This document shows positions 12,728-54,665 of a stretch of 64,000 nt of DNA, piece by piece. The notes beneath the pieces are model-generated. The model saw only the letters and a program-made list of their open reading frames with translations. It made no database searches and had not been told where the DNA came from. This stretch comes from Malacoraja senta (taxonomy: Eukaryota), in the NCBI GenBank assembly GCA_038087875.1, contig CM075991.1, positions 6,076,001 to 6,140,000 on the forward strand, given 5' to 3'. Made by a program: the position numbers and the translations under genes. Every line of letters starts with the position of its first letter. Within the stretch, counting starts at the first letter, position 1.

Positions 12728-12972
12728 GTTGGTGATTACGTGCCCACCACGACCCAACCCTCTATCATAAAGGTCAGATGGAAGTTCTTGAATTACTCGT
12801 TTTATTATGTTACTATATTACTTCGTTTGTTGTTTTTTGTGATTTCACACCGCTGCTTCGAAGATTGACGCGCAGGCGCACTGGCGGGGTTCTTCACGTA
12901 ATCACCAACGTAACTCCTCATAAAATAAAGATCAAACTTCAAACTGGTAAGTTCTTGTTTAATCTTACTATT
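12728..12972 (+). mobile_element. DIRS family A, 3' terminal fragment (array unit 1)
   Basis: Matches the 3' end of 18547-24259 including the right ITR and terminal ...AATCTTACTATT. Confidence 0.85.
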
Positions 12973-13183
12973 CCTCTTGTTTTAGATTAAAATGGAAGAT
13001 AATCTTTGAACAGGTAATATTCAGTCGTCTGCTGGACCCTGGTAGGGGAGGGGGAGGGGGGTGGGAGGGGGAGTGAAATCACTATCATTTTCTGAGGATT
13101 GAGCCAACACTCAAAGTGCCGGCCTTCCCAAAACAGTGAAATAGTTCGTGCACTGCTCAAAACTGCTCAAAAACTCAATGTAA

Positions 13184-13496
13184 GACTTCTGGTAGCACCA
13201 TGTTATACTAACAGATGTGCACCTAGCTCCGCTCTCGAAAAAAAATCGTGATTTTTCATGCTAGAACGGGTCTATAAGTCGGAATTGATTTAAAACCTCA
13301 CCGGAGCTTCTGGTCGCCGTGCTGATGATGTCATCAGTACGCGCCGTGCTGATGACGTCATCAGTAAACGTGGCTTAAAGACTTTTAAATGAGAAAACTG
13401 TCTCCAGCTCAGAGCCCTCAGAGAACAGTTAAAAAACAGCTGCTGAAAAACCTGAAGAATCCTGAAGGAGAAGTTACCTCTGAAGTTCCTGAAGTG
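13184..13496 (+). mobile_element. L1 5' UTR + start of ORF1, truncated at the array junction (also 15208-15518, 17229-17514, 24470-24781)
   Basis: Begins GACTTC(C/T)GGT after the same target sequence as the full L1 at 33334 and encodes MRKLSPAQ...EVTSEVPEV, as in that element's ORF1. Confidence 0.9.
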
Positions 13497-13569
13497 CTTA
13501 CTAATCTCATATTTCAAAATATTAATTGCAAACGAGAACTCCAAAGTACTCCTACTCAATCCATAAATC

Positions 13570-14084
13570 CAGAATGCAGCCGCCCGACTCATTACCCAGA
13601 CCAAATCCTGGCACCACATCACCCCAGTTCTCAAAGAACTCCACTGGCTTCCCATTTCCCACCGGATCATCTACAAAATCCTGGTCCTCACCTACAAAGC
13701 CCTCAACCACTTGGCCCTCCCTTATCTCACTGACCTCCTCTCCCCCTACCAACCCTCACGGTCCCTCAGATCCACATCAGCTGGTCTCCTCTCCACTCCG
13801 AAATCAAACCTCTGCACTTTTGGAGGCAGAGCCTTCTCCAGGGCAGCTCCCAGGCTCTGGAATTCCCTCCCACAACTGATCCGAAATTCTGAGTCCCTCA
13901 CCATCTTCCAGTCCCGCCTCAAGACCCATCTCTTCACTTCTGCATACCCTTAGTCCCATGTTCCCCTCCCTTTTGCATCTCTGTCTTACTGCTCCAATTT
14001 TTTTGTTTATTCTTGACTCTCAATGTAAAGCGACTTTGAGTCCTGAAAAGCGCTATATAAATAAAATGTATTATTATTATTATT
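13570..14084 (+). mobile_element. 5'-truncated L2-clade LINE (also 15592-16106, 17588-18102, 24855-25370)
   Basis: QNAAARLITQTKSWHHITPVLKELHWLPI...PSRSLRS...AFSRAAPRLWNSLP...FQSRLKTHLF, stem-loop 3' UTR and (TAT)n tail; probable TSD ATAAATC at 13563-13569 / 14085-14091. Confidence 0.9.
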
Positions 14085-14528
14085 ATAAATCATGCCTCTA
14101 ATGTTTAGACTTTGACCCCCCTGGTCCAAAGTTTCCAAAACTGGTGGAACAGATTTCTCAGAATCATTTCCTTTATCAGTTTCCTTCCTTATCTTGGAAG
14201 CTACAATGAACTTAATCCCTTGATGTTGTTTTCCTGTCAATTTATAAATGTATATTTTCAGAGAATTTCTCAATCCAGGTGTTGGACTCAAGAATGAGAA
14301 TAAAAATGTTGCACCAAGCAGGATTGCAACACTACAGATGAATGGACTTTAACCCAGTTCATGCCATTGATTTTTGGACTGAATGACATGAATTTAATCC
14401 ACATTTAGAAAGCATTTGGCAGGTTGCTGTTCAAATCAGGTAGAAGGGGGAAATAGACAGTGGATGGAAGGATTGAACACCTTGCAGGTGGCCACCATAC
14501 AACATTATACAGAGACAGAAACAATCAC

Positions 14529-14995
14529 ATTTTACTTCGGAGTCACGTGAGTGACTACGTGAAGAACCCCGCCAGTGCGCCTGCGCGTCCGAGTCAATCA
14601 ATGCAGTGAGAAGCCGGGATTTGTCTGCGGCATGATATCACAAAGCTTTCAAATCTTCACGTAGTCACTCACGTGACTCCGAAGTAAAATAGTAAGATTA
14701 AACTAGAACTTACCAGTTTGAAGTTTGATCTTTATTTTATGAGGAGTTACGTTGGTGATTACGTGCCCACCACGACCCAACCCTCTATCATAAAGGTCAG
14801 ATGGAAGTTCTTGAATTACTCGTTTTATTATGTTACTATATTACTTCGTTTGTTGTTTTTTGTGATTTCACACCGCTGCTTCGAAGATTGACGCGCAGGC
14901 GCACTGGCGGGGTTCTTCACGTAATCACCAACGTAACTCCTCATAAAATAAAGATCAAACTTCAAACTGGTAAGTTCTTGTTTAATCTTACTATT
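14529..14995 (+). mobile_element. 467-bp internally deleted mini-DIRS (family A), unit 2
   Basis: Left ITR joined directly (GCGCGTC|CGAGTCAATC) to the 3' region with the ICR and right ITR; ATT at both ends. Confidence 0.9.
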
Positions 14996-16547
14996 CCTCT
15001 TGTTTTAGATTAAAATGGAAGATAATCTTTGAACAGGTAATATTCAGTCGTCTGCTGGACCCTGGTAGGGGAGGGGGAGGGGGGGTGGGAGGGGGAGTGA
15101 AATCACTATCATTTTCTGAGGATTGAGCCAACACTCAAAGTGCCGGCCTTCCCAAAACAGTGAAATAGTTCGTGCACTACTCAAAACTGCTCAAAAACTC
15201 AATGTAAGACTTCCGGTAGCCATGTTATACTAACAGATGTGCACCTAGCTCCGCTCTCGAAAAAAAATCGCGATTTTTCATGCTAGAACGGGTCTATAAG
15301 TCGGAATTGATTTAAAACCTTACCGGAGCTTCTGGTCGCCGTGCTGATGATGTTATCAGTAAGCGCCGTGCTGATGACGTCATCAGTAAACGTGGCTTAA
15401 AGACTTTTAAATGAGAAAACTGGCTCCAGCTCAGAGCCCTCAGAGAACAGTTAAAAAACAGGTGCTGAAAAAGCTGAAGAATCCTGAAGGAGAAGTTACC
15501 TCTGAAGTTCCTGAAGTGCCTACTAATCTCATATTTCAAAATATTAATTGCAAACGAGAACTCCAAAGTACTCCTACTCAATCCATAAATCCAGAATGCA
15601 GCCGCCCGACTCATTACCCAGACCAAATCCTGGCACCACATCACCCCAGTTCTCAAAGAACTCCACTGGCTTCCCATTTCCCACCGGATCATCTACAAAA
15701 TCCTGGTCCTCACCTACAAAGCCCTCAACCACTTGGCCCTCCCTTATCTCACTGACCTCCTCTCCCCCTACCAACCCTCACGGTCCCTCAGATCCACATC
15801 AGCTGGTCTCCTCTCCACTCTGAAATGAAACCTCTGCATTTTTGGAGGCAGAGCCTTCTCCAGGGCAGCTCCCAGGCTCTGGAATTCCCTCCCACAACTG
15901 ATCCGAAATTCTGAGTCCCTCACCATCTTCCAGTCCCGCCTCAAGACCCATCTCTTCACTTCTGCATACCCTTAGTCCCATGTTCCCCTCCCTTTTGCAT
16001 CTCTGTCTTACTGCTCCAATTTTTTTGTTTATTCTTGACTCTCAATGTAAAGCGACTTTGAGTCCTGAAAAGCGCTATATAAATAAAATGTATTATTATT
16101 ATTATTATAAATCATGCCTCTAATGTTTAGACTTTGACCCCCCTGGTCCAAAGTTTCCAAAACTGGTGGAACAGATTTCTCAGAATCATTTCCTTTATCA
16201 GTTTCCTTCCTTATCTTGGAAGCTACAATGAACTTAATCCCTTGAGGTTGTTTTCCTGTCAATTTATAAATGTATATTTGCAGAGAATTTCTCAATCCAG
16301 GTGTTGGACTCAAGAATGAGAATAAAAACGTTGCACCAAGCAGGATTGCAACACTACAGATGAATGGACTTTAACCCAGTTCATGCCATTGATTTTTGGA
16401 CTGAATGACATGAATTTAATCCACATTTAGAAAGCATTTGGCAGGTTGCTGTTCAAATCAGGTAGAAGGGGGAAATAGACAGTGGATGGAAGGATTGAAC
16501 ACCTTGCAGGTGGCCACCATACATTATACAGAGACAGAAACAATCAC

Positions 16548-17014
16548 ATTTTACTTCGGAGTCACGTGAGTGACTACGTGAAGAACCCCGCCAGTGCGCC
16601 TGCGCGTCCGAGTCAATCAATGCAGTGAGAAGCCGGGATTTGTCTGCGGCATGATATCACAAAGCTTTCAAATCTTCACGTAGTCACTCACGTGACTCCG
16701 AAGTAAAATAGTAAGATTAAACTAGAACTTACCAGTTTGAAGTTTGATCTTTATTTTATGAGGAGTTACGTTGGTGATTACGTGCCCACCACGACCCAAC
16801 ACTCTATCATAAAGGTCAGATGGAAGTTCTTGAATTACTCATTTTATTATGTTACTATATTACTTCGTTTGTTGTTTTTTGTGATTTCACACCGCTGCTT
16901 CGAAGATTGACGTGCAGGCGCACTGGTGGGGTTCTTCACGTAATCACCAACGTAACTCCTCATAAAATAAAGATCAAACTTCAAACTGGTAAGTTCTTGT
17001 TTAATCTTACTATT
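16548..17014 (+). mobile_element. 467-bp internally deleted mini-DIRS (family A), unit 3
   Basis: Same deletion junction and flanks as 14529-14995. Confidence 0.9.
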
Positions 17015-18546
17015 CCTCTTGTTTTAGATTAAAATGGAAGATAATCTTTGAACAGGTAATATTCAGTCGTCTGCTGGACCCTGGTAGGGGAGGGGGAGGG
17101 GGGGGGTGGGAGGGGGAGTGAAATCACTATCATTTTCTGAGGATTGAGCCAACACTCAAAGTGCCGGCCTTCCCAAAACAGTGAAATAATTCGTGCACTG
17201 CTCAAAACTGCTCAAAAACTCAATGTAAGACTTCCGGTAGCGCCATGTTATACTAACAGATGTGCACCTAGCTCCGCTCTTGAAAAAAAATCGCGATTTT
17301 TCATGCTAGAAAGGGTCTATAAGTCGGAATTGATTTAAAACCTTACCGGAGCTTCTGGTCGCCGTGCTGATGACGTCATCAGTAAACGTGGCTTAAAGAC
17401 TTTTAAATGAGAAAACTGTCTCCAGCTCAGAGCCCTCAGAGAACAGTTAAAAAACAGCTGCTGAAAAACCTGAAGAATCCTGAAGGAGAAGTTACCTCTG
17501 AAGTTCCTGAAGTGCCTACTAATCTCATATTTCAAAATATTAATTGCAAACGAGAACTCCAAAGTACTCCTACTCAATCCATAAATCCAGAATGCAGCCG
17601 CCCGACTCATTACCCAGACCAAATCCTGGCACCACATCACCCCAGTTCTCAAAGAACTCCACTGGCTTCCCATTTCCCACCGGATCATCTACAAAATCCT
17701 GGTCCTCACCTACAAAGCCCTCAACCACTTGGCCCTCCCTTATCTCACTGACCTCCTCTCCCCCTACCAACCCTCACGGTCCCTCAGATCCACATCAGCT
17801 GGTCTCCTCTCCACTCCGAAATCAAACCTCTGCACTTTTGGAGGCAGAGCCTTCTCCAGGGCAGCTCCCAGGCTCTGGAATTCCCTCCCACAACTGATCC
17901 GAAATTCTGAGTCCCTCACCATCTTCCAGTCCCGCCTCAAGACCCATCTCTTCACTTCTGCATACCCTTAGTCCCATGTTCCCCTCCCCTTTGCATCTCT
18001 GTCTTACTGCTCCAATTTTTTTGTTTATTCTTGACTCTCAATGTAAAGCGACTTTGAGTCCTGAAAAGCGCTATATAAATAAAATGTATTATTATTATTA
18101 TTATAAATCATGCCTCTAATGTTTAGACTTTGACCCCCCTGGTCCAAAGTTTCCAAAACTGGTGGAACAGATTTCTCAGAATCATTTCCTTTATCAGTTT
18201 CCTTCCTTATCTTGGAAGCTACAATGAACTTAATCCCTTGATGTTGTTTTCCTGTCAATTTATAAATGTATATTTTCAGAGAATTTCTCAATCCAGGTGT
18301 TGGACTCAAGAATGAGAATAAAAACGTTGCACCAAGCAGGATTGCAACACTACAGATGAATGGACTTTAACCCAGTTCATGCCATTGATTTTTGGACTGA
18401 ATGACATGAATTTAATCCACATTTAGAAAGCATTTGGCAGGTTGCTGTTCAAATCAGGTAGAAGGGGGAAATAGACAGTGGATGGAAGGATTGAACACCT
18501 TGCAGGTGGCCACCATACAACATTATACAGAGACAGAAACAATCAC

Positions 18547-21500
18547 ATTTTACTTCGGAGTCACGTGAGTGACTACGTGAAGAACCCCGCCAGTGCGCCT
18601 GCGCGTCATTACGTCAGACGCATTGGCGCAAACAGACGCGAGGAGCAGAGCTCCTCTAGTGGAATTGTAGTTTTCAACTACAAGATATAGCAATGTTACA
18701 AAATTTTGAGATTTTAAAAATAAAGTCTGCAATTTATCCCATCAGATAAAGCATAAAAAGAAGTTTAATGTGACACCTAATTCACTTTCATATCTTCAGT
18801 ATTAAAGAAGTCATGGCCATTTTCATACTCGGAAATTAGCATCTTGTTCCCTATTGCTTTTCCATTGACTTAACACAAAAGCTGTGATTGAGGACAGTTA
18901 AAAGCCCATAACTTTCTTAAAAATTAAGATAACTGAAAGAAATTTTCAGTTATTATAGATTGAAGCATTCTGAAACAAATATGAAACAATCTTACTTAGA
19001 AGACATGAAAGTAAAGCATATAATTAGGTAGTTACGTAATTGTAGCTAATTACAAAATTCAATTACTAGATCTAAACATCTATCAATTTCTTAAGAATAG
19101 ATTAACATTTTTAAATAGCCTAAGTGTCCAAATAACATTCACACAATAATTCACAATATAACATAATTTTTAAATCTCATTTTCATGAATTTACAGGCCA
19201 AATGGAAGGAATTGAATGTTTAATACCTGTAAATTAATGAGGATTTAAATCATCTTGTGAGTGAGGATTTCTGGAACGCGATCTTTTGGAACGTTCATTT
19301 GCGGTGAATTTAACCCCGTATTGGCATGAAAAATACTGCCGTTAATTCGGGGAATAAAATCACCGTGTCGCATGAAAAAATGTGAATTAAAGGCTTCTTA
19401 AGAAGCACTTTTATACATTTAAAGAAACCACTTTTGTTTACCTGTCCCATGTGTGAAATCCGTCCCCGTTATCGGCGTTTACGCTTCAGAAGCTGCTTTT
19501 AAAATTACTCTAGCGCTGACATTGACGATTTAATAAAAATTAAAAAAACACAAAAGGCCACTAGGAACGATTTGTCAGCCAAGGCTTGTACTCCAACAAA
19601 ATATTAACCAGGACAAGGGAGGAGAAACCCGCGTTTTAACCCCGTCCCCCCTTAAAGGCGCCAAAATCGCGCACACGGCCAGTGGCAGAATTGCAGCGCG
19701 ACTGAAGGTAAGTTTTGTAACATACCTACAAGATAAGTATAAACTTTTTTGGAAGTATTTCCGTGTCCGTTTACTGTGGGTTTGTGGGGATTTTTTCCAC
19801 AGGCATCATGGAAAAAACGGGCAAGGGGAGGAGGCGAGCGGCACAGCCGACAGAGAGTCGCGAGATTGCGGTCGGCGACCAGCCGCCTCTGACCACGGTA
19901 CAGTCGCCAGCAGACAGCATAGCGACTGTGGATATTGGGGCTGAAGTGAATTTAGTCAGCACCAGTGGGGCAAGGCAAAGCCGATAAAAAGCTGCGGGAA
20001 TGCGGTCGGTAAAGGACTGCCTCATACCCTACAACAGTCGCCGGCTGGGAGCGGGGCGAACTGTGGATTTGTGTATTAAAGAAAAGAACGGAGCCAGCGT
20101 CAGTTGGGTGCTAGGCAACATACAAGTCAGGGCCATGGAGCAAGAGTCAGTTTGGGATTCACCTCCAAGACTGGATACCACTTTCTGAGTGGATATTCCA
20201 AATGGAGAACCTGTACACAGGTTGCTCCAACAATACATACTCCAGGAGGAGTGATGTCAGAACCAGGCTCTAGAAGCCAGGTCAGCAGCACCGAGTAAAG
20301 GGCTGCTTGATAGCATCCTCATTGATGAGGCGCGTGCACAGGGTCAGCAGAGTTTCCAAAACAAGCAAAGACGGCAGCTGCCAGATGTTTTACTCCTGGC
20401 AGTACGATTCGCTGCCCCGTCAGAGTCAGGAGAGCCACTTGGAAAGGAAGTGGGCTCTGTGATCAACTATTGTGTCTGCCATCAGCACTAGTAGATTACG
20501 ATGGATGAAAATGCCCAAAAAGCACGAGATCCCAAGGAACTGCGTATTGCTGAAAGTACTAGCAGTGAACCAAGATATAAGGGGTCAGATGGGCGAAGGC
20601 ATGTAAGCCTAAGGAAAGTAAACTGCAGAGAATATTGAAGCTGCTGGGTTGATGAACAACTGCAATTTGCAAATCAATGGATGGAGGCCATGGATGGAGA
20701 TGCATCAAGTGGCACTAAGGTTGCTATGTAGCGCCCACTTCAAGAAGAATTGTTTCAGGAAGTATACCATTCGGTCCACCATCAACCCAAAGTTGCAACA
20801 ACTCTGTAAAGCCCAGCAATGTGCAGTCATTCAACTTATTCTTCAGAGAAAAAACCTCATGAATCGTGGGAAAGAGTTGGATAATGAGGCAAAAACAGCA
20901 AAGTTGATCACAACATCAATGGTCATCAAGTCTGCAAAGAGGACGTATCCTTTCAGACATCATACAAAATCCTGGACCGACATCAGGATCAAATCGACCA
21001 TTGAAGCAGGTGCGCAGTTGATGCCCTGCAGCAGGAAAAACGAAAAAGCGTGGGTTTTGCCTGCCAGGAGCCAGAGACCACAGGTCACTCAGATGACAAA
21101 GGAGGTAGGTGGACCTGGTTCTTATGGGAACATATTAAGGCAAAAACAGCCAAATATTGGAAGCAAATTACTTAAATTATTATTCTGAGTATTATAGAAA
21201 GGTTTCGAATTGATTCGATTCAAATACTGGTTTGCCATCCAGCATGTTCCAAGCAGAACACTCCAATTTCACATAAAAATAATTGATGGAGGTTCAAGCT
21301 GAATTGAAAACTTGTTTAGAAACAAGTAATTGAAAGCTCGGTTTATCAAAACCACCAAATTGTGTTTAAAATTTCTCAACCTAAAAAGGTGAGGAGTATT
21401 TTAGATCTGACAAGTCTTTAAAAGTTTGTGAAGTATAGACACTTCAAAATGGAGACTTTGAGACTGCCAAACAATTTATTTCAAAAAAGATGTTTTATGG

Positions 21501-24259
21501 CACTTCTAGATCTGAAAGATGTATATTACTTAGTGTTTGTTCATTTATAAGATAAAATTATCTGAAGGAACAATTATGGCAATTCAAAGTTCTGTCTAAC
21601 GGGTTAACTTCAGTTCCTAGAATTTCACTAGATTGGTAAAAACAATTTTGGGGCTAATTAGAGTCCAAGGACAGATGTGGATGGCTTAACTGGATGATGT
21701 CCTAATTAGGACGAACAAGAGAATTAGTGAGTTATCTCTCTCAAATTATTCAAACCACTTTTGAAAGTTGGGTTTAATTCATCCAGAGAGAAATTAAGTT
21801 TAACGATACTTACAACAATTGATTATTTGATTCAATTGAAAGGGTAGTAATTTACCCAAAGTAAAGCTAATTGATGGTTGTATTAAGCAGTTGGAAAAGC
21901 AACAATCTTCAATTAAGACAGGTGGCCAGCTTGTTAGGAGAATTAGTGTTATTTCCAGCAATACAATATGGGCCATTGTACTACCAGCAGCTGCAGACTG
22001 CAAAAAGAAAAAACACTAAGATGCATGATGGCCATTTTTTGATAGGCCATGCAATTAAACAACAAATGCTGCTTTTGATTGCAGTAGTGGATTTAACATG
22101 TCTTCAGTAGTTCAAGCAAGATACGGATTGAACAGCCTTCCATGGTCTTAACAGACTGATATCAGTGTACTAGGATTGGTGCCACTGAAAAGGTATCCAT
22201 CTATGGACAGATGGAATATGGAAGAAGTATTATTTTACAGACATGGAGAATCGATGTTTTAAAGTCTATTGGAAGGCTTATGAGCTACAAGCTTGTTGTT
22301 TAATACAACTAATCTGCATGTTCAGTTTCAAATTAACAACACTACAGCAATGGCATGTATTAATTGTATGGGTGGAATTTCCATGATAACAAAGAATGGA
22401 TGTTTAACCTTAAGATTTTTTAATGATATAATAGTCAGATTTGGGCAGCCAGATATGATTTATTTCCATCCAGACTCAATCACCAGTTACAGAGATATGC
22501 GTTATGGGACTACATCGGGAGACAGTAGCGATGGATGTTTCTCGCTATATTAGGATGGTATGTTGTTATAGGCATTTTACTTCATCCTGTCTCATAAATC
22601 GGTGTCTGCTTAAAACGAAGCAGTATGCTGCCTCTGGGGTATTCGTGGTACCAGACGGGTCTACGCAGCCATGGTTCCCTTTGATATTGGAATTTATGAC
22701 ACAGTTTCTGATAAATGTTCCCAAAAGAAGGAAGTTACTGGTGTATTCGATAATTGGAGAGTAACATCCGTCATATGCCTGTATGGATGCAGGTTTTAAA
22801 AAAGAGGATTGTCTGGGCATGCTGCGGACATGCTTACAGCAGTCTGGCGGAAGAGTACTCAAAAGCAGTACATTTGTGAATCTGAGTTGTGACTCTGTAA
22901 ATGCTGCTTTCCCATTATGTAAAGGAGAACAAATTTCTGTGTATAAAAGAATATGGAAGGTTGTATGGCACATGTCTCAAATGTTTTGGATTTACCTCTA
23001 TTTAAGGGGTTGAGTTAGTACGATTTATTCAGACAGAAGTATATTATTCCTTGTTTTTATTGATGAGGTTGTAAAGACATCCTGTTGAGTTTCGTTCTTT
23101 CATTTCCAGTTTAATGAAAGGAATTTTAATTCCAGACCTTCTAAACCTAGGAAGGGATCTGGAATATAGAGTTGTTTCAAGCTACTTCATCAATGGAGTC
23201 TTGGTACGATTCTGATTTGGCCAAGTTCAGCATGGAGGTATTCATGCTTATGGCACTTGTAACATTACAAAAGTTACAGATACACAGGATGGAAGTACCT
23301 CAGGATTATGTTATGTTTTACATTTTAGGACCTACTCAAAGTAGGATCAGGTGTGATGGGATTCAAGAGTGTTTTATTAGCATATTCTATGGATCCATGT
23401 CTATATGTTAAGACATATTTGTTGCAATACATTGAGGCTACAAAGGTCTTATGAAATATGAAAACAAGATTGTTTACATTCATGAAAAACCATACAAGAT
23501 AGTGTCAGTTCAGACTATTTTAAGATGGTTAAAAACAAGTTTTGGTTGCTGCAGGTGTGAACATTGATGGTTTTACATTCCATTCAGTTTAGCAGCAACA
23601 TTGACGACCAGGGCGAAGGACGTCCCGTCGACCATATTTTCACAGCCTGCCGGGTGATCTATTAAGTTGGTGTTTCAACACTTTTACCATTGGCCTATTG
23701 CCAATACGGGGCTGTTGGAAGATACTATATTAAGTTCTGCTTAAATTTCCCTGGGTTAAAGGGGATACTGTTAATTCTCTTATTCAAATAAATGAATTAC
23801 TGCATTTGTCAGGCAAATGTTATTATTCATGCATTATTGATTATTTCTCGTTCCGAGTCAATCAATGCAGTGAGAAGCTGGGATTTGTCTGAGGCATGAT
23901 ATCACAAAGCTTTCAAATCTTCACGTAGTCACTCACGTGACTCCGAAGTAAAATAGTAAGATTAAACTATAACTTACCAGTTTGAAGTTTGATCTTTATT
24001 TCATGAGGAGTTACGTTGGTGATTACGTGCCCACCACGACCCAACCCTCTATCATAAAGGTCAGATGGAAGTTCTTGAATTACTCGTTTTATTATGTTAC
24101 TATATTACTTTGTTTGTTGTTTTTTGTGATTTCACACCGCTGCTTCAAAGGTTGACGCGCAGGCGCACTGGCGGGGTTCTTCACGTAATCACCAACGTAA
24201 CTCCTCATAAAATAAAGATCAAACTTCAAACTGGTAAGTTCTTGTTTAATCTTACTATT
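18547..24259 (+). mobile_element. Near full-length degenerate DIRS1-type tyrosine-recombinase retrotransposon (family A)
   Basis: Left ITR from ATTTTACTTCGGAG; right ITR 24153-24259; ICR 23918-24029 complementary to both termini. Broken gag (~19808-21110), RT (FKMET, LDLKD.Y, LDD ~21400-21720), RNase H (NTTAMACIN ~22335), methyltransferase-like (VVPDGSTQPWFP ~22645) and YR remnants (~23100-23743), with many stops and frameshifts. Confidence 0.9.
18688..19728. mobile_element. Non-autonomous TIR DNA transposon, copy 2, inserted in the DIRS A 5' region
   Basis: TSD CAAGATA at 18681-18687 and 19729-19735; empty site with single CAAGATA at 31007-31013 in the paralogous DIRS copy. Confidence 0.9.
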
Positions 24260-25681
24260 CCTCTTGTTTTAGATTAAAATGGAAGATAATCTTTGAACAG
24301 GTAATATTCCGTCGTCTGCTGGACCCTGGTAGGGGAGGGGGGGGGGGTGGGAGGGAGAGTGAAATCACTATCATTTTCTGAGGATTGAGCCAACACTCAA
24401 AGTGCCGGCCTTCCCAAAACAGTGAAATAGTTCGTGCACTGCTCAAAACTGCTCAAAAACTCAATGTAAGACTTCCGGTATCGCCATGTTATACTAACAG
24501 ATGTGCACCTAGCTCCACTCTGGAAAAAAATCGCGATTTTTCATGCTAGAACGGGTCTATAAGTCGGAATTGATTTAAAACCTTACCGGAGCTTCTGGTC
24601 GCCGTGCTGATGATGTCATCAGTAAGCGCCGTGCTGATGATGTCATCAGTAAACGTGGCTTAAAGACTTTTAAATGAGAAAACTGTCTTTAGCTCAGAGC
24701 CCTCAGAGAACAGTTAAAAAACAGCTGCTGAAAAACCTGAAGAATCCTGAAGGAGAAGTTACCTCTGAAGTTCCTGAAGTGCCTACTAATCTCATATTTC
24801 AAAATATTAATTGCAAACGAGAACTCCAAAGTACTCCTACTCAATCCATAAATCCAGAATGCAGCCGCCCGACTCATTACCCAGACCAAATCCTGGCACC
24901 ACATCACCCCAGTTCTCAAAGAACTCCACTGGCTTCCCATTTCCCACTGGATCATCTACAAAATCCTGGTCCTCACCTACAAAGCCCTCAACCACTTGGT
25001 CCCCCCTTATCTCACTGACCTCCTCTCCCCCTACCAACCCTCACGGTCCCTCAGATCCACATCAGCTGGTCTCCTCTCCACTCCGAAATCAAACCTCTGC
25101 ACTTTTGGAGGCAGAGCTATCTCCAGGGCAGCTCCCAGGCTCTGGAATTCCCTCCCACAACTGATCCCAAATTCTGAGTCCCTCACCATCTTCCAGTCCC
25201 GCTTCAAGACCCATCTCTTCACCTCTGCATACCCTTAGTCCCATGTTCCCCTCCCCTTTGCATCTCTGTCTTACTGCTCTATTTTGTTTTGTTTATTCTT
25301 GACTCTCAATGTAAAGCGACTTTGAGTCCTGAAAAGCGCTATATAAATAAAATGTATTATTATTATTATTATAAATCATGCCTCTAATGTTTAGACTTTG
25401 ACCCCCCTGGTCCAAAGTTTCCAAAGCTGGTGGAACAGATTTCTCAGAATCATTTCCTTTAACAGTTTCCTTCCTTATCTTGGAAGCTACAATGAACTTA
25501 ATCCCTTAAGGTTGTTTTCCTGTCAATTTATAAATGTATACTTTCAGAGAATTTCTCAATCCAGGTGTTGGACTCAAGACTGAGAATAAAAACGTTGCAC
25601 CAAGCAGGATTGCAACACCACAGATGAATGGACTTTAACCCAGTTCCTGCCATTGATTTTTGGACTGAATGACATGAATTT

Positions 25682-28600
25682 AATAGTAAGATTAAACGAG
25701 AACTTACCAGTTTGAAGTTTAATCTTTATTTTATGAGGAGTAACGTTGAGGGATTACGTGAAGAAGACCCCGTCCAGCCGCACACGCGTCAATCTTTCAA
25801 AGCAGCGGAGTGACAATCACAAACGATAATTACTGAAGTATGATAGTAAGAAGCATAAAGGCTTAGAACTACCAGCTTGATCCTTTTATGAGGGTGGGAG
25901 CGGAGGGCACGTAATCCCTCAACGTTACTCCTCATAATATAAAGATCAAACTTCAAACTGGTAAGTTCTCGTTTAATCTTACTATTTTACTTCGGAGTCA
26001 CGTGAGTGACTACGTGAAGATTTCAAAGCTCTGTGATTTCACACCGTGGATTAAAATCCAGCTGCTCACTGCACTGATTGACTCTATTTGAGTAAGCACA
26101 ATCAACAATGCATAACCATAACATTAAATGTAATCAGTTAATGGTTTTATTTATTTTAACAATTTAACCCATTTATCATAATGGGGTATTTAATACTGAA
26201 CCCAGCACGGCATCACCAAACACCCCCGGGATCTTTAATCTCCTTATGGTAATACTTGTGAAACATCTGTTCACTTGCCCATCCTGCGGCCGCGAGGATA
26301 AGGTCTATTGGAACGTCTGAATCCCTGGCCGCCGATGTTGATGCCCCCCTGGTGGAATGAGATTTTAATTTATCAGTATCAATACCTGAATAATCAACAC
26401 CTGTTTCAACCATCTTGAAATTGTCTGTGTTGACACTTTCTTATGAGGACTTTTATGACTAATAAAATGCTAATTATGTGCCTCTTAAGATTCTGTTTGT
26501 TTCCATGTAACATCTTACATATATTACCACACATAGCCATGGATCCGTAGGATATGCTGAAAACTCCAACTTACATCCTGTGAACCGAGGTCTACTTTGC
26601 TTCAGTAAATCATAGACATAGAATGTAACGGCATCTGCCCCTACTTTCATTCTGTCAATTTAATTTCTGTAATGTTTGAGCTCTCTGAGCTGAAACTAAT
26701 GCCGTCAGCATAACCAATTTCATGGTGATTTCGGCTAATGACAGAGTTTCAATAGGATTCCAATCCCTCAGCAGTATCAGTACATCTTTAACATTCCAGA
26801 TTTCTGTATACCTATTATGAAAATTCCCTTCATAAACCTACAGACCCAAGGATGTGATCCTATTGAATTTTGTTCTGATTCACTGCCTAATATGCAGAGA
26901 GTGCACTTCGTGCAGTATTGTTTGCACTAACTTAATTTTTAATTCGTAGTAAAGAGTTGAAAGAAACTTTAATACATCTGAAATTTCTGCTGTGTTATAT
27001 GCAATATTCTTTCCTGAACAAAACACCTCCTATTTCTTTATATAAGAAATGTACTGCTTCTGGGTACTATTCCTCCAGGCTGTTGATATACCATCCACCG
27101 TACGGTCTGATAATCCTCTTCCAAGATATGGCCTTTTCAGAATCTGCAAATCAACAAACCAATACGATCATGTAAAGGATGTGGTTCATTAGTTACAGGG
27201 TTTACAAGCAGTTTCACCTGCTTTGGAATAACCATAAGGGGTTCTTTGACTATGTTTAACACCAGTGGATACCATAGCTGTGTAGGCCAATCTGGTACCA
27301 CCAAAATCCCCGAGGCTGAGTCCTGTTTAATTTTCTGTATGTATCTATTGATTTAAACAAAATGGAGGAAATGCATACAGAAACATATCACCCCAATGTA
27401 GCGAGAAAGCATCTACCGCTACTGCACCAGGATCAGGTTCCCATGACACATACTTAGGCAATTGGTGGTTTAGTCTTGATGCAAACAATCAATCTTTGGC
27501 ATTCCAAATCGTGTTACAATTTGCTTAAATATTTCCTGATGTAACATCCATTCTGTATTATCATTAAATTTACGTGAGCTTTTGTCTGCAATTGTGTTAA
27601 ATTTTCCTGGTAAATATATTGCTGACAGCCAGATTTTCCTGACAATACACCAGGTCCAAATTTCATTTGCCAATCTATCACATGATTCTGATTTGATACC
27701 ACCCATGTGATTTATGTATGCTACAGCTGTAGTATTGTCAACCTGTACCTGAACATGCACATTTCCCATATTAGTGCAATAAGCTTTAAGGCCATGAAAT
27801 GCTCCTAACAGCTCTAGGTAATTTATTCCTTAATCTTCAAGCAAAGGTACTTCATCAACATTCCACCTACCTCCACAGCTGGAAATCATGTTAGTTGCGC
27901 CCTCCAAGAGCACTTACATCAGTCTGTAGAATGACAGAAGGTGTTTCTACCAGAACATTTCTGGAAGCATTAGAGACATTGTTAATCCACCATTCTATTT
28001 TTGTAATGGATCCAATTGTTAATTTCATGGGCCTGTCAAATTGCCCTGTATTCATTTTTAATGCTTGTACCTTAGCCCTATGCAAACATTGATAATGCAA
28101 TGGTCCAAACCTGACAGCTGGAAACCCAGCAATTAATTTGCCCATCAAGCTTGCCACTTCTCTAATTAAAGGCTTGTCCTCGTTTATGTGTTTAGTGCAA
28201 CATTCAATTAACTGCAGCCTTTTCTCTTTTCGCAAGGTGATTACCATGTGTTCAGAGTTAATTGTGAACCCTGGGTAATCAATGTTCTTGCTTTGTAACA
28301 ATTTAGATTTTTGTAGGTAAATAATGAAACCCATTTTTTCAAAATGTATTTGACTCTCGATACTGACAATTTTGTAGTAGCCAAAGTGTCCCGCACAATC
28401 AGAATATCATCTAAATAAACCATTAATACATGGCCCTCAGCTCTTAGCAGAGCTAAAAATCGGTTTGAGTAATTTAGTGAATAATCTTGGTGCTGTAGTC
28501 AGGCCATTTGGGCAATGCTTTAAATTGCCATAACTGACATCCATCTAAATTTCATATATCTTTGATCATTACCATGCATTGCCACAGAATAATATGCATT

Positions 28601-30742
28601 TTGCAGATTTATGCTTGCCATGTAGCAATTCTTTGTGACCAGCTGAATGGCATTAGTAAATGTTTCCATTTTGAAATGTTTCTATTGTACATAAAGCTTA
28701 AGATTTGTCAGATCCAAAATGATTCTACATCTACCATCCCTTTTTTTTTTTTTTTTCCTTAGGAGAATATTTGACAGAAACTGATGGTGTTGTTCTACTG
28801 ACATTTCTATTACCCCTTTTCTGCATAAAATGTTTCATTTCTCCATTGATCGACTTACTCTCTTCCTTTGAGAAAATCCGTGACCAGTTTGAATTATGCT
28901 GAATTGGAGGATCCAAACGTGGAGGGAACTCAATTTTGAATCCTACCATGCTACATAGAATAAATGAATCATTTGTTATTGATTGCCATTCTTTTAGGAA
29001 GAATCGTAACCTTCCCCCTATTTGTGAGTTGTGAAACATTTGTTGTGTTTCTTACCAGACCAAGGCCCCCTACCTCAGGGTTTGCCACTGGCAATTGTCC
29101 CCTTCTAGTAGGCACATTGTAACCTCCACGTATCCTCGGTGCAGCACGTCAACGTGTATACGAGAATGATAGGATTGTTCTTTCTCCAGCACCAGCATTT
29201 CGCCTGTAGGGATACTGCCTTCGCACCGCTCTGCTCAGCATAGGTGATCCTTTAGTTTCTTTGCTAGATTTTCTCCAAAAAGCAGATTTAGGCATTTGTA
29301 TATTGGATGGTTTGCAGAGCCTGCATACTTAGGATGAATATTTGGTCTTATTGCATTTTTACGAATACAATTTATTTCAAAGTGCGCACTACACATGGGT
29401 GCTAAGGCATTTTGTTGTGAATCCAATATAAAATCTTCATCCAAACCACTGGCAACGCCGTAATGCCTGACCCCAGCAATTTCCGTACTTGTGTAATTTC
29501 AATTCTTGTGAGCGTAAACCACTGCTCAAATAACCCATATCAAGTTATTCACTGCTGGAATTGCTACAATTTTCGGGGGTCTCATCTTTTTTGATAGTCG
29601 CATCCATAGTGAATTCCTAGGCTGATGGGAGAGTAGATAATTTATAGTCATAGCTATTTCCTCTCTCAAAGGTTCACCTGTTACTCTGGGAACAGCAAAC
29701 TTTTGTGCCAGCCTTGGAACATTTTTAGATCTGATAATGGGCTCTGGTCCTCATATAAATCATCATCTAAATCTAGATATTCATTTTTATGTTGGGTAAT
29801 TTCTGGCTCCCCTGTTTCAGGTAAGTCTCTGCCAGATTTCCCCTGCGCTGGCTCTCTTGTAGGCCCACGGATAGGCAGCCCTGCTTCAGGTACTGCTGGC
29901 GCTGGCTCAATTCTAGGCCAACGCTTCATTATTTTTACTCTTTATATTGTCGGTGCTGGCACATATGTCATTGCACGTTTGTGCTGCCTTTTGTTCAGGC
30001 ATTTCTAGTACTGGCTCTCCAATAGGCCAACACATATATTGCCTTTTTTCTGGCATTTTTGGGCACTGGCTCTCCTGTAGGCCAACCTCTTTAATGTTTC
30101 TGCACAGGCATTTCTGATGGCTCTCCTGTAGGCCACCCTTGTGCCTGTCCCATCCAAGGCACCTCCTGTGCTATACTTCATTGGCCAACCCCGACTTAAA
30201 TCCTCCTGTGGGGTTCTTTATAAATCATCTGCCCCATAAGGAGTTCTAAAGTTTTGACCCTTGCAGTGCAATATTCTTTCCTGCCTGAGGAGGGTATATC
30301 TCCGGGTCTGACTCATCCGAGTCTACAGGTCGGGCCGACTTTTGTCCAGCCTTGTGCCCCGCCGCCGGCGGTTTAACGGCATACTCGACCACAACGGGAG
30401 TTAATGGCTTCGCTGCCGCTGACTCCACTGACTGGCGCCCGCTACCCTTAGGATCTGGGGTTTTACTACGGTGCGTCCCTGACCGCCTCTCCTTCCCCCT
30501 TTCTCCATAATAAACTTGTGTGGAGCTCCACCAACAAGTCTGAACGGGAAGGAAATGCTCCTGTAAGTGAAAGTAACCCACTTACCTTCCGACTTTTGCT
30601 TACTTTTGCTTTACTCACCGGTCGGAGGAGCTCCTGCTCCTCCACACACGGTCATGAACGCTCTGCGTCTGATCGATATGATGCGTGTGCGGCTGGATGG
30701 GGTCTTCTTCACGTAGTCACTCACGTGACTCCGAAGTAAAAT
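25682..30742 (-). mobile_element. Full-length degenerate DIRS1-type retrotransposon (family B)
   Basis: ITRs and ICR (~25908-26020) as in family A; RT YLDD (ORF 28241..28423), RNase H QVDNTTAVAYINHMGG (27470..27769), MT LYAFPPF (~27360-27380), YR C-terminus HSTRGAS...AAGW...YY (26213..26413); AAT at both ends, and the empty site TTTAATCCACA is present in the other array units. Confidence 0.93.
26213..26413 (-). pseudogene. DIRS tyrosine recombinase C-terminal fragment
   Basis: H-x-x-R (HSTR), AGW and catalytic Y region typical of DIRS YR; upstream part is frameshifted. Confidence 0.85.
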
Positions 30743-30872
30743 CCACATTTAGAAAGCATTTGGCAGGTTGCTGTTCAAATCGGGTAGAAGGGGGAAATAG
30801 ACAGTGGATGGAAGGATTGAACACCTTGCAGGTGGCCACCATACAACATTATACAGAGACAGAAACAATCAC

Positions 30873-32046
30873 ATTTTACTTCGGAGTCACGTGAGTGACT
30901 ACGTGAAGAACCCCGCCAGTGCGCCTGCGTGTCATTACGTCAGACGCATTGGCGCAAACGGACGCGAGGAGCAGAGCTCCTCTAGTGGAATTGTAGTTTT
31001 CAACTACAAGATAAGTATCAACTTTTTTGGAAGTATTTCCGTGTCCGTTTACTGTGGGTCTGTGGGGATTTTTTCCACAGGCATCATGGAAAAAGCGGGC
31101 AAGGGGAGGAGGCGAGCGGCACAGCCGATAGAGAGTCGCGAGATTGTGGTCGGTGACCAGCCGCCTCTGACCATGGTACAGTCGCCAGCAGACAGCATAG
31201 CGACTGTGGATATTGGGGCTGAAGTGAATTTAGTCAGCACCAGTGGGGCAAGGCAAAGCCGATAAAAAGCTGCGGGAATGCGGTCGGTAAAGGACTGCCT
31301 CATACCCTACAACAGTCGCCAGCTGGGAGCGGGGCGAACTGTGGACTTGTGTATTAAATAAAAGAACGGAGCCAGCGCCAGTTGGTGCTAGGCAACACAC
31401 AAGTCAGGGCCATGGAGCAAGAGTCAGTTTGGGATTCACCTCCAAGGCTGGATACCACTTTCTGAGTGGATATTCCAAATGGAGAAGGTGTACACAGGTT
31501 GCTCCAACAAAACATACTCCAGGAGGAGTGATGTCAGAACCAGGCTCTAGAAGCCAGGTCAGCAGCACCTAGTAAAGGGCTGCTTGATAGCATCCTCATT
31601 GATGAGGCGCGTGCACAGGGTCAGCAGAGTTTCCAAAACAAGCGAAGACGGCAGCTGCCAGATGGGCTATTCCTGGCAGTACGATTTGCTGCTCTGTGAG
31701 AGTTCTGACCCTGAGTCTGACGGTGAGGCCGATACAAGCGAAGACGGCAGCTGCCAGATGATTTACTCCTGGCAGTACGATTCGCTGCCCCGTCAGAGTT
31801 AGGAGAGCCACTTGGAAAGGAAGTGGCCTCTGTGATCAACTATTGTGTCTGCCATCAGTTCTTGAATTACTCGTTTTATTATGTTACTATATTACTTTGT
31901 TTGTTGTTTTTTGTGATTTCACACCGCTGCTTCGAAGATTGACGCGCAGGCGCACTGGTGGGGTTCTTCACGTAATCACCAACGTAACTCCTCATAAAAT
32001 AAAGATCAAACTTCAAACTGGTAAGTTCTCGTTTAATCTTGCTATT
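30873..32046 (+). mobile_element. 1.17-kb deletion derivative of DIRS family A (unit 5), lacking the ICR
   Basis: 5' ~985 bp of DIRS A without the MITE, fused at GCCATCAG|TTCTTGAATT (~31858, AG microhomology) to the 3' terminal segment. Confidence 0.9.
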
Positions 32047-32250
32047 CCTCTTGTTTTAGATTAAAATGGAAGATAATCTTTGAACAGGTAATATTCAGTC
32101 GTCTGCTGGACCCTGGTGGTAGAGGGGAGGGGGGGGTGGGAGGGGGAGTGAAATCACTATCATTTTCTGAGGATTGAGCCAACACTCAAAGTGCCGGACT
32201 TCCCAAAACAGTGAAATAGTTTGTGCACTGCTCAAAACTGCTCAAAAACT

Positions 32251-33308
32251 ACAAATTCGTGATTATCTGAAAAAATACACAAAAGACTATCATAATATGC
32301 CTTCCGACTTACTAGATGAAGCAATGAAGACAAAGGCGGAATCAGCTAATCTAATATCGTACTTATATAATATCATTTTAAACATAGAAATACCCACAAC
32401 AGATGGAATTAGAAGAGACTGGGAACAAGAATTAGCTATAAAAATTTCAAAAGAGAGCTGGGATAACCATTTACTACAGGTGCATAAATGTTCGATCAAC
32501 GTACGACATACGCTCATCCAATTCAAAACATTACATAGACTATATTACTCAAAAACTAAATTAAATAAAATCTTTCCTAATGTTTCACCAATCTGTGATA
32601 AATGTCTATGTCAAGAAGCTACCATAGCGCATTCTTTTGTTTTTTGTACAAAAATCCAAAAATTCTGGTATGAAATATTCGATATTTTTTCAAAATTAAT
32701 TAAAATAAAACTGGTACCAAAACCAGAATGGATCATTTTTGGAATATCGGAAGGTATCCCTGAATTAAACGTGTATCAGAAGAATTTATTCAATTACGGG
32801 CTAATAATGGGAAAAAAGCTTATACTTAAATTCTGGAAAAATGCGCCCACACCAACAATAAAAATGTGGACATCAAATATGTTTGAAACATTACATCTGG
32901 AAGAGATGAGATTCCTCTTAACAGGTAAAGCAGACTAATTCCAAAAGACGTGGTCTACGTTTCTGGACCTATTACAAGCATGAGGTGCAATAGTAATTTA
33001 AAAAATAAATAAATAAAGAAATGGTATCAGGACCTGGTAATGGGAGGTAAAACAACAAAAACAGACTTGGTTGGTAGTTCCCTTTCTGCGATTGTTCCTA
33101 CTTTCTTTTTCTTTCTTTTCTAAGGCCTACTTTCTTACTTTACTTCCTTCTCTAACTTCTTTTCTAAGGGGCTTTCTTTTCCCAACACTCTCTTGCACTT
33201 CACGACTCTTGCGCACTTTCTTTACTTTTCTTACTTCTATCTTTGTAAAAAAAATATATATATTAAAAAAATAAAAAATAAAAAATAAAAAAAAAATAAA
33301 AAAAAATA
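32251..33308 (+). mobile_element. 5'-truncated L1-clade LINE (second subfamily)
   Basis: ORF2 C-terminus with CCHC knuckle (CDKC...HSFVFC), T-rich 3' UTR, A-rich tail; 17-bp TSD AAAACTGCTCAAA(A/G)ACT at 32234-32250 / 33309-33325; 3' UTR differs from the full-length L1. Confidence 0.92.
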
Positions 33309-33506
33309 AAAACTGCTCAAAGACTCAATGTAAGACTTCCGGTGGCGCCATGTTATACTAACAGACGTGCACCTAGCTCCAGATTTTTCGCGCTATAACA
33401 GGTCTATGTCAGAATTGATTTAAAAACCTTACCGGAGCTTCTGGTCACCGTGCTGATGACGTCATCAGTAAGCGCGATGTTTTAAACGTGGCTTAAAGAC
33501 TTTTAA

Positions 33507-34575
33507 ATGAGAAAACTGTCTCCAGCTCAGAGAACAGTTAAAAAACAACTGCTGAAAAACCTGAAGAATCCTGAAGGAGAAGTTACCTCTGAAGTTCCTG
33601 AAGTGGCTGCAGAAATGGATAAAAGATCTAAGACAGAGCTGGCTAAGGATAAAGAATTTGAGGATTTGAAGAAATCAGTGAAAGATATGAAAGATGAAAT
33701 TTTGGATGAAAATAAAACTCTGATGGAAAAAATGATGGAAAAAATCTAAAGATGATGTAGGATTCGAATGCTGGTAATCAGAAGGTTATTGATGCTGGTA
33801 ATCAGAAGGTGATTGATTCACTTGACACTATAATGTGAAAGATGGACTATCGGGGAGAATTGATAAGATGGAAAAAGTTACTACGGACAGGTTCACTGCT
33901 GTGCTTGAAACAGTAGCTGCAAGTATGGCTACAATCACGGAATTGGAGAAAAATATGGCTCGAGTGGCTGAAGACATGGTGAAAATGAGGCGAGAACATG
34001 GTCAAATGAAGCAAGAACATGAGCAAACTTCAGTACAGATGACGACTCAACTGGGGAAAGTTTCAGATAAATGCCTGGACCTGGAAGCTCATTCTAGACG
34101 CCAGAATTTGAGAATTCTTGGAGTCTCAGAGGGAACTGAGGGAAGGGACATTCGTGAGTTTGCCATGGGCTTAATTAAACAACTGCTTAATCTCTCCAAA
34201 GAACCGAAAATTGAAGTGGCACACCGTGTACCGAGATTTAAACCGAGATCTCAAGCTAGACAAGACCACCCATGACAGATTATTGTGAAATTTCGAGACA
34301 TTTCAGAACTGGAAGAGGTGATGAGTAAAATCAAATATGGAGTGCAACTGAGGCTTGATAACGACATTATCAAAATATTCAGGGACTATCCGTGTGAAAT
34401 TGTGCAAAAGAGAAATCAATTCGGAAAGACAAAATAACTTTTAAGGGGGATGCAAGATATTAGATATGGTATCTTTTATCCAGCTAAAATGCGCATCTCT
34501 TATAATGGACGTGAAAGATCATTTGTAAACCCGGAGGATGCGTACAAATATGCCCAGAGCATCGTTGAAAAGTAG
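33507..34575 (+). pseudogene. L1 ORF1 (coiled coil + RRM + CTD), disrupted
   Basis: Coiled-coil N-terminus, DLEAHSRRQNLRILGVSEG and AHRV motifs, YPAKMRI CTD remnant; internal stops and frameshifts. Confidence 0.88.
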
Positions 34576-35455
34576 CGATATAGATGGTATGAACAAACTT
34601 CTTTATTGGAATTCCACAGTTAATGGAGGATCGCCAGCTCATGTAGTATTTTGTTTAGGATGGCGAGACTGGTTATCTGTTGAATTTTAACTCAAGGACA
34701 TTCTGTGTTCCAAACGAAGTAAACAGCCGAACCGAAGAGAATGGACTATACCAGAAGCATTAATTGTTTAATGGATTATAATATTAAATCCAATTGTAAG
34801 AATTGATCCTATTAACAACTTAACAATTTAACAAGTTATCAATATTAAACTAGAATAGTAACGGATGCTAATAACAAAAATAACGAACTAACATAACTAA
34901 CATAAATGTTTACTAAATCTAAACCTTATCTATAACTGGAAGGAGGGGATGAGAAACGAGCACCTGGCTCAGGTCCAGGAGCACGTTTCATTAACCCCTT
35001 CAACCAACAGTTGATTATTATTGAAGGTAAAATCATTCGTTTAATAATTAGTAGATAAAATTGCGATATATATATGATATGTTATAATGAAATATATAGG
35101 GTAAATTTGTATTATATATCTGATTGTGAGGCCCCGTCCTATTATGTTATGATTAACCAAGGGTGCGGAGTTATTTGTTTAACATCAACAATGGAAGTCG
35201 AAACAAGGTTTTCTCCCACCTACAGTTGGGCCACTTGTTACAGTGTCGACCATTTTAGACACTGTGTTTTCACTTTTTCAATTTTTTTTAAATTATTATT
35301 ATTACCACATAAAGTCACATGTTTGTGTTTTGTGTTTAGTGATAAGCGTAAAAGTGATATGCCAACAAAACTTAGTAATGCAAAGGTTCACCCAATACCC
35401 AAAGACCTGAGACATGGATGCACTGCAAGATTTAAAGGTATTATAATTATTCAAA

Positions 35456-39202: not shown

Positions 39203-39730
39203 GTTGCAAAAGTACTTAAAAAAAAAAAACGGAGGTCAGGTAAAGGGGGATGAAAGCTGGAGAGTTGGTATATCCCATTTGCGTGATGCTTTTTGTTTTT
39301 GTTAAAAAGTATTTGTTTTTCTCTTTTTTCCTCTCTTTTTTTCCTTCTTTAGGATCTATCTCTTAATCCTTTCTTTTTAATTTCTTTTCTAGAGGGTCTC
39401 TGTTCTTTCTTGTTGTCACGTTTTACACCTTCACTATGTTCCTTCACTTTCTCTTTTTTCTTAATCTCAACCTTTCCTTTTTATCAGTGTAAAAAATGAC
39501 GGAGTACATTAATTGTAATAAGATATACGTGATGAGTACTAATGTAATTGGTTGTAATGTAATGTACTTCTAATAAATAAAAATAAAAAATAAAAATAAT
39601 AAAAACTCAATGTAACGTCCAGCGACAGTGCTCCTCAACAGGGAGTTCACCCCATGACGCAAGGATGCTTAATCCAGTCCCTCCCACCGGCATCGCCACC
39701 AAGCTGCATCAAGCAACTAATCCTATTTAA

Positions 39731-54386: not shown

Positions 54387-54665
54387 TGTGGCATTCCTAC
54401 CTGAAATATAATATCAGAAGGGAGTATCTGGAGCCAAAGACTGTGGCATGGTTATGTATAAATGCTAAAAAAGATACCGGCACATGGGACAGCACCTTGG
54501 CACAGCTAACATCGGCCTCATAGTGCCATGGACCCAGTGCAATACTGAGCCATTCATATATGCAGTTTGCAACTTCTTTGTGCGATGGTGTAAGTTTCCT
54601 CCGGGTCCTCCAGTAGTTTCACTGGCGTCCCAAAGCATGGTCCTGGTCTTTTCTCGCCTCCTGCT

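Follow-up and report, generated by a model that had tools for sequence, protein, structure and literature searches.

Positions 12728 to 33605 of a 64,000-nucleotide stretch from the skate Malacoraja senta (NCBI GenBank assembly GCA_038087875.1, contig CM075991.1, positions 6,076,001 to 6,140,000 of the forward strand; referred to as the window) hold a five-unit composite tandem array. Its units combine host DNA with a fragment of an L2-type long interspersed nuclear element (LINE), a DIRS1-like retrotransposon (DIRS A) and the 5' end of an L1 element. Very probably it is a real, local composite tandem repeat that goes back to the ordinary duplication of a stretch loaded with transposons and that has since stalled. 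Published work is cited throughout from excerpts of the sources.

Layout of the array

Direct repeats with ~95-99% identity over 0.7-2 kb, spanning 12.7-33.6 kb, were detected by self-BLAST of the window. This confirmed the location of the five units given in an earlier sequence-only reading of the same DNA. Unit identities of 95.5-99% over 0.7-2 kb are far above the chance expectation. The array and its parts, with host1, host2 and host3 as the three host spacers, are the following.

12728-33605, + strand: whole five-unit composite tandem array (self-BLAST, junction mapping)
12728-13496, + strand: unit 1, partial; DIRS A 3' fragment 12728-12972, host3 12973-13183, L1 5' end 13184-13496
13497-15518, + strand: unit 2, 2022 bp; host1, L2 3' fragment 13568-14087, host2, mini DIRS A, host3, L1 5' end 15208-15518
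15519-17514, + strand: unit 3, with the anatomy of unit 2; L2 fragment 15590-16109, L1 5' end 17229-17514
17515-24781, + strand: unit 4; host1, L2 fragment 17586-18105, host2, near full-length DIRS A with a miniature inverted-repeat transposable element (MITE), host3, L1 5' end 24470-24781
24782-33605, + strand: unit 5; L2 fragment 24853-25373; runs on into the full L1
18106-18546, no strand: host2 spacer as present in unit 4; absent from the window outside the array; two contigs of run X1 match it without a difference

The order host, L2, host, DIRS A, host, L1 5' end, which had been proposed for each unit, holds for units 2-5. Unit 1 lacks host1, L2, host2 and the DIRS 5' end, and its left edge lies inside the internal complementary region (ICR) of DIRS A. 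Motif mapping placed the L1-host junction four times in one orientation, after 13496, 15518, 17514 and 24781, while L1 is uninterrupted at the fifth position. The junction point is 99 bp past the putative ATG (33507) of open reading frame 1 (ORF1) of the full L1. With four identical junctions mapped, the proposal of one common junction in L1 ORF1, from which only the last unit enters the full L1, proved correct. The contents claimed for the DIRS A slot were likewise recovered: a 3' fragment in unit 1, 467 bp in units 2 and 3, 5713 bp including a 1041-bp MITE in unit 4, and 1174 bp in unit 5. A second DIRS1-like element (DIRS B) and a truncated L1 occur only in unit 5, as stated before; the matching sites are empty in the other units holding those positions. 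Altogether the array contains four L2 fragments and five L1 5' ends. Each full unit carries at least three repeat types (L2 fragment, DIRS, L1 5' end), and all three host spacers are confined to the array within the window. Unit sizes are uneven, with two complete 2-kb units and others of 0.8, 7.3 and 8.8 kb.

The array is a further case of a known kind of composite tandem repeat. Human composite tandem repeats and megasatellites patterned by transposable elements (excerpts of PMC2588610 and 10.1101/2021.07.12.451456) also have units of at least three repeat types in tandem at one locus, and unequal crossing-over was proposed for them, as here. In the LTR6A case of PMC2588610 later unit-specific insertions were used to order events by the same logic. 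Unlike the human megasatellites, the array is far smaller (~21 kb, two complete short units), its units vary from 0.8 to 8.8 kb, it has no shown gene or sign of present turnover, and it holds DIRS elements. The array itself is of little weight and may serve as a teaching case or as a source of presence/absence markers among related fishes.

The sequence-only reading had also described a nascent 2-kb macrosatellite built almost wholly from transposons. Neither part of this description was borne out. The transposon share of the 2-kb unit 2 is 1298 of 2022 bp (64%), and the many homogeneous kilobase-size units of a macrosatellite are missing: just two units are complete, and these, the closest pair (units 2 and 3), differ at 18 of 1992 columns (0.9%). 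No pair of units is near-identical. The mutation rate reported for the epaulette shark is 7e-10 per generation (excerpt of PMC10587355). At this rate, which is that of another species, has a wide interval and is applied to CpG-rich sites, 18 of 1992 would correspond to millions of generations. The array looks stalled, with no sign of present growth. That it is instead a nascent macrosatellite which still grows, with a varying copy number that is perhaps collapsed in the assembly, seems quite unlikely. The deletion common to units 2 and 3 shows that the 2-kb unit was copied once, and identical units can collapse in assemblies; however, besides the small number and the divergence of the complete units, the depths of host2 in run X1 fit the window's own copy count at one per-copy value, 24-27.

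These depths were obtained as follows. Among the 24 runs listed, one contains more than half of the unit 4 words, and four (X1, X2, X3 and X5) were aligned to 17017-24259; the 21 runs with a small share were not used as evidence, except X3 and X5. Two contigs of X1, with depths of 67.8 and 91, match host2 with 0 differences. From the copies in the window, mean 31-mer multiplicities of 2.86 and 3.40 are expected for these contigs, corresponding to ~24 and ~27 per copy, not far from the lowest depths among the X1 contigs listed (21 and 27). A fork is predicted at 18416, at the DIRS B site, and lies at most 2 bases from the X1 contig break. The host2 depths of X1 are suggestive of about four copies. 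Run X2 has the same organism label as X1 and about one ninth of its depth on the DIRS interior. In X2, X3 and X5 no contig covers the host2 bin 18227-18468; such a contig gap proves nothing and is not read as absence, sex linkage or polymorphism. The listed 15 of 53 joints and 24 of 1379 loose ends do not include the joints of the mini DIRS A, of unit 5 or between L1 and host, which supports no conclusion.

The differences between the units are those of germline mutation and not of read error, as judged from three properties. CpG transitions account for 27 of the 82 two-state substitutions, compared with 127 CpG columns in 2028 (6%; p 4e-13), transitions outnumber transversions (58 vs 24), and private changes are present in every unit (5, 7, 10, 13 and 42). 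The CpG-transition excess and the private changes uphold the earlier argument that copies differing by substitutions and indels are not a pure assembly artefact. A partial artefact, with tandem stitching of alleles accounting for one or two of units 1-3, is quite improbable as well. It would agree with the fact that none of the contigs seen spans the array, and with the L2 segment of units 2-4, which differs at just 3 of 902 positions, near the shark diversity of 0.002 (excerpt of PMC10587355). However, two alleles at one site cannot give five distinct copies, units 2 and 3 are set apart by indels of 2, 3 and 27 bp in addition to the 0.9%, and the junctions are clean and identical.

Order of duplications and insertions

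Overall divergence among the units is 0.9-4.5%, and unit 5 is the most divergent of the five. It differs from units 2-4 by 2.8-3.1% (49-54 of ~1750 columns), compared with 0.9-1.4% among units 2-4. Over the 640 columns present in all five units, unit 5 differs from the rest by 3.9-4.1% and the others from one another by 1.1-2.0%. These two levels of divergence therefore indicate one old duplication, followed by a burst. A unit phylogeny, as called for in the sequence-only reading, gave no order within units 1-4 (support 20 and 59). The tree was rejected as a summary, and units 1-4 are described as a star.

Filled and empty sites provide the order of the insertions. L2, DIRS A and the full L1 are filled in every copy spanning their sites and are thus older than the first duplication; the three insertions are not nested. 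DIRS B and the truncated L1 are younger than the first duplication, because their paralogous sites are empty. The data support an insertion of the MITE after the split of units 4 and 5. The previously suggested sequence of events, early insertion of L2, DIRS A and full L1, then duplication, then unit-specific insertions and deletions, therefore stands on the filled and empty sites. Its last step, a re-amplification of the shrunken unit as a separate later pulse, found no support, since units 2 and 3 differ by 0.90% and units 2 and 4 by 1.09%, and the tree support is low. The deletion common to units 2 and 3 implies one or more rounds of copying of the shrunken unit. This mini deletion and one substitution group units 2 and 3, and another substitution groups units 2 and 4.

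The course of events is reconstructed as follows. A host stretch of ~725 bp first acquired DIRS A, the full L1 and a fragment of L2, as is shown by the filled sites in every spanning copy. One rearrangement with its breakpoint in L1 ORF1 then doubled the block head to tail, as the one junction in four copies shows, either by direct duplication or by a deletion inside a larger one. The copy ending at the junction gave rise to four units within a short burst, for which unequal crossing-over is the most likely mechanism; during this burst, DIRS A was shortened in place to 467 bp and the shortened unit copied once more. Finally, single units gained the MITE, DIRS B or the truncated L1, or lost DNA via deletions with 2-bp microhomology, and the left portion of the leftmost unit was lost. 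Neutral debris is the most likely status of the array.

Unequal crossing-over appears the likeliest route by precedent (PMC2588610 and 10.1101/2021.07.12.451456, both in excerpt). Two weak mosaic signals speak for it. Over the 166 bp that follow the junction, no site is private to unit 5 (p 0.03), and the private changes of unit 4 number 0 in its left half vs 13 in its right half (Fisher p 0.024 against units 2 and 3 together). Two sites common to units 4 and 5 in the left half are CpG decays, which probably arose in parallel. It is extremely unlikely that units 1-4 resulted from a single event of rolling-circle reinsertion of one circular copy. Their star-like relation, the one junction in all of them and the truncated first unit would be expected from such an event, but a full DIRS A in unit 4 combined with a deletion common to units 2 and 3 needs at least two steps, and one site groups units 2 and 3.

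Several points weigh against the account of a real array built by local duplication and unequal crossing-over. Run X1 is possibly the source sample of the window and comes without an independent single-copy depth, and the longest contig reach on the unit is a few hundred bases. An orthologous empty locus, from which the original left flank, any microhomology at the junction and the relative timing of the three early insertions could be read, was not seen. Shared derived changes in units 1-3, as predicted by a mosaic unit 4, were not found in the aligned units, and the two sites that group unit 2 with unit 3 and with unit 4, respectively, are in conflict.

DIRS elements and their deletion derivatives

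The DIRS copies of the array and the MITE were mapped as follows.

18547-24259, + strand: DIRS A, DIRS1-like, in unit 4; ATT ends, ICR 23918-24029, reverse transcriptase-RNase H-methyltransferase (RT-RH-MT) region 21320-22884
14529-14995, + strand: mini DIRS A of unit 2; 467 bp, ATT to ATT, internally deleted
16548-17014, + strand: second mini DIRS A, in unit 3; 467 bp, deletion junction equal to that of the unit 2 mini
30873-32046, + strand: DIRS A deletion derivative of unit 5; 1174 bp, ICR lost, MITE site empty
25682-30742, - strand: DIRS B, second DIRS1-like family; 5061 bp, ATT at both ends, unit 5 only
18688-19728, no strand: MITE in DIRS A of unit 4; 1041 bp, TAG...CTA ends, target duplication of 7-9 bp, unit 5 site empty

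Both families have inverted termini with an ICR complementary to both ends, NTT (ATT) ends and coding regions for RT/RNase H/MT and tyrosine recombinase. They resemble described DIRS1-like elements (excerpts of PMC3266345, PMC9210276 and PMC5633606) in these inverted termini, in the ICR with its 3-bp junction, in the ATT ends, in the RT-RH-MT region and, for DIRS B, in the HSTR motif of the recombinase, which is still readable. They differ from those elements in that severely disrupted frames go together with an ICR and termini that are still matched, and in having three in-place deletion derivatives. In tblastn searches DIRS A matches the DIRS-type RT-RH-MT protein P0001 (PF00078+PF05869) at 5e-13 and DIRS B matches it at 2e-76. 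DIRS A has no Pfam match, and the Pfam matches of DIRS B are weak and below the cut-off (RVT_1 0.003, Phage_integrase 0.057). DIRS B targeted a single ATT, which is empty in units 2-4; an empty DIRS A site was not seen in the units.

The open reading frames of an autonomous DIRS1-like element are absent. The RT-RH-MT region of DIRS A carries 12 frameshifts and 10 stops in 1.6 kb (22 lesions, 14.1 per kb), and that of DIRS B 8 frameshifts and 4 stops in 1.9 kb (12 lesions, 6.4 per kb), compared with 4 frameshifts and 2 stops (1.6 lesions per kb) in ORF2 of the co-resident full L1 (Poisson p 5e-14 for A and 7e-5 for B). The ICR of DIRS A nevertheless matches the termini at 111 of 112 positions in units 2 and 3 and at 109 of 112 in unit 4, with an inverted match of 39-40 bp, and the ICR of DIRS B has 2 mismatches. 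The ICR templates the DIRS ends at each replication (excerpts of PMC5633606 and PMC7192593), and ICR-terminus identity should therefore date the insertion. A 298-bp contig from the run of another organism matches 22012-22309 with 5 substitutions and 0 gaps; this span holds 2-4 frameshifts and 4-5 stops, depending on which of two protein queries is used. Two of the 8 contig spans checked are without a lesion and the others have one or two. Family contigs of X1 and X2 cover the DIRS A interior deeply throughout.

The near-perfect pairing of ICR and termini despite 22 lesions, some of them shared with the contig of the other organism, argues that DIRS A is a member of a coding-dead family moved in trans. 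This is the simplest reading of the sequence and probably the right one. From these three lines of evidence we infer that DIRS A, and probably DIRS B, would have been coding-dead at insertion. A reservation is that the lesion counts were made against distant proteins (34-42% identity), which may inflate the frameshift calls. Trans action of the DIRS-1 RT has been demonstrated (excerpt of PMC7192593) and 36 of 75 DIRS families in Xenopus are degenerate (excerpt of PMC9210276). Movement of a dead DIRS family in trans is an already known possibility and no new kind. The wider use lies in the dating: ICR-terminus identity can date DIRS insertions in the manner of long terminal repeat (LTR) pairs, and in this case suggests near-full-length DIRS families whose spread went on with dead genes.

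Besides the right terminus and a complete ICR, the 467-bp mini retains ~60 bp of the left terminus. Its deletion shows 2-bp microhomology, and its left breakpoint is the inner end of the inverted repeat. The unit 5 derivative joins positions equal to 20485 and 24071, also with 2-bp microhomology. At 7 positions checked against the family, the minis have the letters of unit 4 at 5 and the family letter at 2. The locus letters shared with unit 4 at 5 of the 7 positions indicate that the minis were cut in place. Unit 1 is at most a possible former mini. The right breakpoints of the three DIRS A losses (23854, 24015 and 24071) lie within ~65 bp of the ICR, a pattern that was noticed post hoc and in which unit 1 is possibly not independent. 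Incomplete internal deletion of DIRS by ectopic recombination is expected (excerpt of PMC8498967), and other internal deletions of the DIRS A family appear as joints in X1. The joint 24259>18547, found in X1 and X2, was not taken for a circle or a tandem DIRS, as the ICR contains an identical junction. An internal repeat of ~95 bp is present twice in the unit 5 derivative (31640-31760) and once in unit 4 (20360-20430).

It is very unlikely that the 467-bp element is a mobile, genome-wide mini-DIRS which replaced DIRS A by gene conversion, or that the complete unit is a mobile composite. The mini does retain its two termini and the ICR, the need for the ICR and trans action are shown for DIRS-1 (excerpt of PMC7192593), and the X1 joints reveal further internally deleted family members. 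On the other hand, both minis lie between the flanks of unit 4 and their locus letters differ from the family, and, as a weak point, the 15 of 53 joints listed do not include that of the mini. Neither a target duplication nor a terminal structure is associated with the array as a whole, which speaks against a composite mobile unit.

A more far-reaching possibility, which we regard as unlikely, is that the locus shows the birth of a mini-DIRS resembling terminal-repeat retrotransposons in miniature (TRIMs). A coding-dead, high-copy family moving in trans would have been stripped by deletions beside its self-pairing ICR, leaving a 467-bp element with termini and ICR that was tandemly multiplied and might be mobilisable or already mobilised elsewhere. 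If mobile, this derivative would show which cis sequence a vertebrate DIRS minimally needs. The TRIMs of LTR elements are likewise short and built from the ends of a longer retroelement. Within the window, to which the comparison with TRIM- or SIRE-like dispersal applies, both minis share their flanks. SIRE, a short non-autonomous derivative of the tyrosine recombinase retrotransposon VIPER, also consists of ~0.45 kb from the 5' and 3' ends (excerpt of PMC6681497). SIRE is dispersed, whereas the two copies of the mini seen here occupy one paralogous site and stem from tandem duplication. The DIRS terminus pattern gave 0 matches in metagenome contigs. No literature on the locus, on DIRS in skates or on such a DIRS mini-element was found in a search that covered few subscription journals and not Repbase.

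The MITE-free joint 18674>19726 is present in runs X1 and X2, in both of which the MITE has a very high copy number. A second copy with TAG...CTA ends lies at 11149-12183 and is alike at 987 of 1030 positions with 18688-19728. Both target duplications can be read as 7 bp preceded by TA or as 9 bp starting with TAC. The superfamily is possibly hAT-like.

LINE insertions, host spacers and the rest of the window

Two L1 insertions are associated with unit 5.

33334-39600, + strand: full-length L1; ORF1 from 33507, ORF2 35465-39193 with endonuclease and RT
32251-33308, + strand: 5'-truncated L1 in unit 5; 1058 bp, A-rich tail, 17-bp target duplication (16 of 17 alike)

The features of the L1 clade were found, namely ORF1, an ORF2 with endonuclease and RT, an A tail and a target duplication. 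The full L1 has Pfam matches to PF03372, PF00078 and zf-RVT, and its best matches are 52-58% to fish-type proteins. Its ORF1, which we assume to be correctly labelled, has no Pfam match. The ~900 bp (34575-35465) between the end of ORF1 and the start of ORF2 similarity are long for an L1. The target duplication of 15 bp has its right copy at 39601-39615 and is exact between units 1-4 and this copy. The truncated L1 is 80% like the 3' end of the full L1 and lies ~11 bp from its site; the site of the truncated L1 is empty in units 1-4. The insertions agree with fish-type L1/L2 LINEs in the endonuclease and RT of ORF2 of the full L1, in the A-rich tail and in target duplications of 15-17 bp, and the short distance between the two insertions is the sole oddity. 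Rfam gave 0 matches in the window, and therefore no RNA-gene target for the two L1 insertions.

The L2-type fragment of unit 4 is 5'-truncated at 17586, and family contigs run on beyond this point as loose ends. The 3' fragment ends in a TAT tail and has no Pfam match; it is presumably L2. In two sets of frames tested from the window, 6 of 11 and 8 of 9 frames had no Pfam match.

A 27-bp tandem repeat in the L1 5' untranslated region (13315-13372, 15337-15389, 24600-24652) contains the palindromic TGATGACGTCATCA, which we take to be similar to a cAMP response element. There are two copies in units 1, 2 and 4, one copy in unit 3, where one repeat of the L1 5' end (17229-17514) is missing, and one copy with a remnant in unit 5.

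Within ~725 bp of host DNA (13497-33333) lie five young insertions, namely L2, DIRS A, DIRS B and two L1; DIRS B and DIRS A are 130 bp apart, and the L1 sites are as close as given above. This host stretch is possibly an insertion hot spot. A 28-nt stretch of host3 (12986-13013) is flanked by a pyrimidine-rich AG and by a CAG|GTAAT donor and is invariant in all five units; the DIRS A insertion point is just upstream of it. From its sequence, the stretch is a possible candidate micro-exon.

Repeats elsewhere in the window are mostly fragments 70-90% alike. The SINEs and CR1 presumably resemble those of cartilaginous fishes. An open frame of 208 codons at 46082-46705 (- strand) has no Pfam match and presumably resembles the C-terminus of a CR1 RT. 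At 63382-63581, 30 kb from the array, there is an assembly gap of 200 N. A two-copy 166-bp tandem repeat (81%) was found at 59016-59348, and 2014-2159 and 54658-54802 form a 146-bp inverted pair with 92% identity, 52 kb apart.

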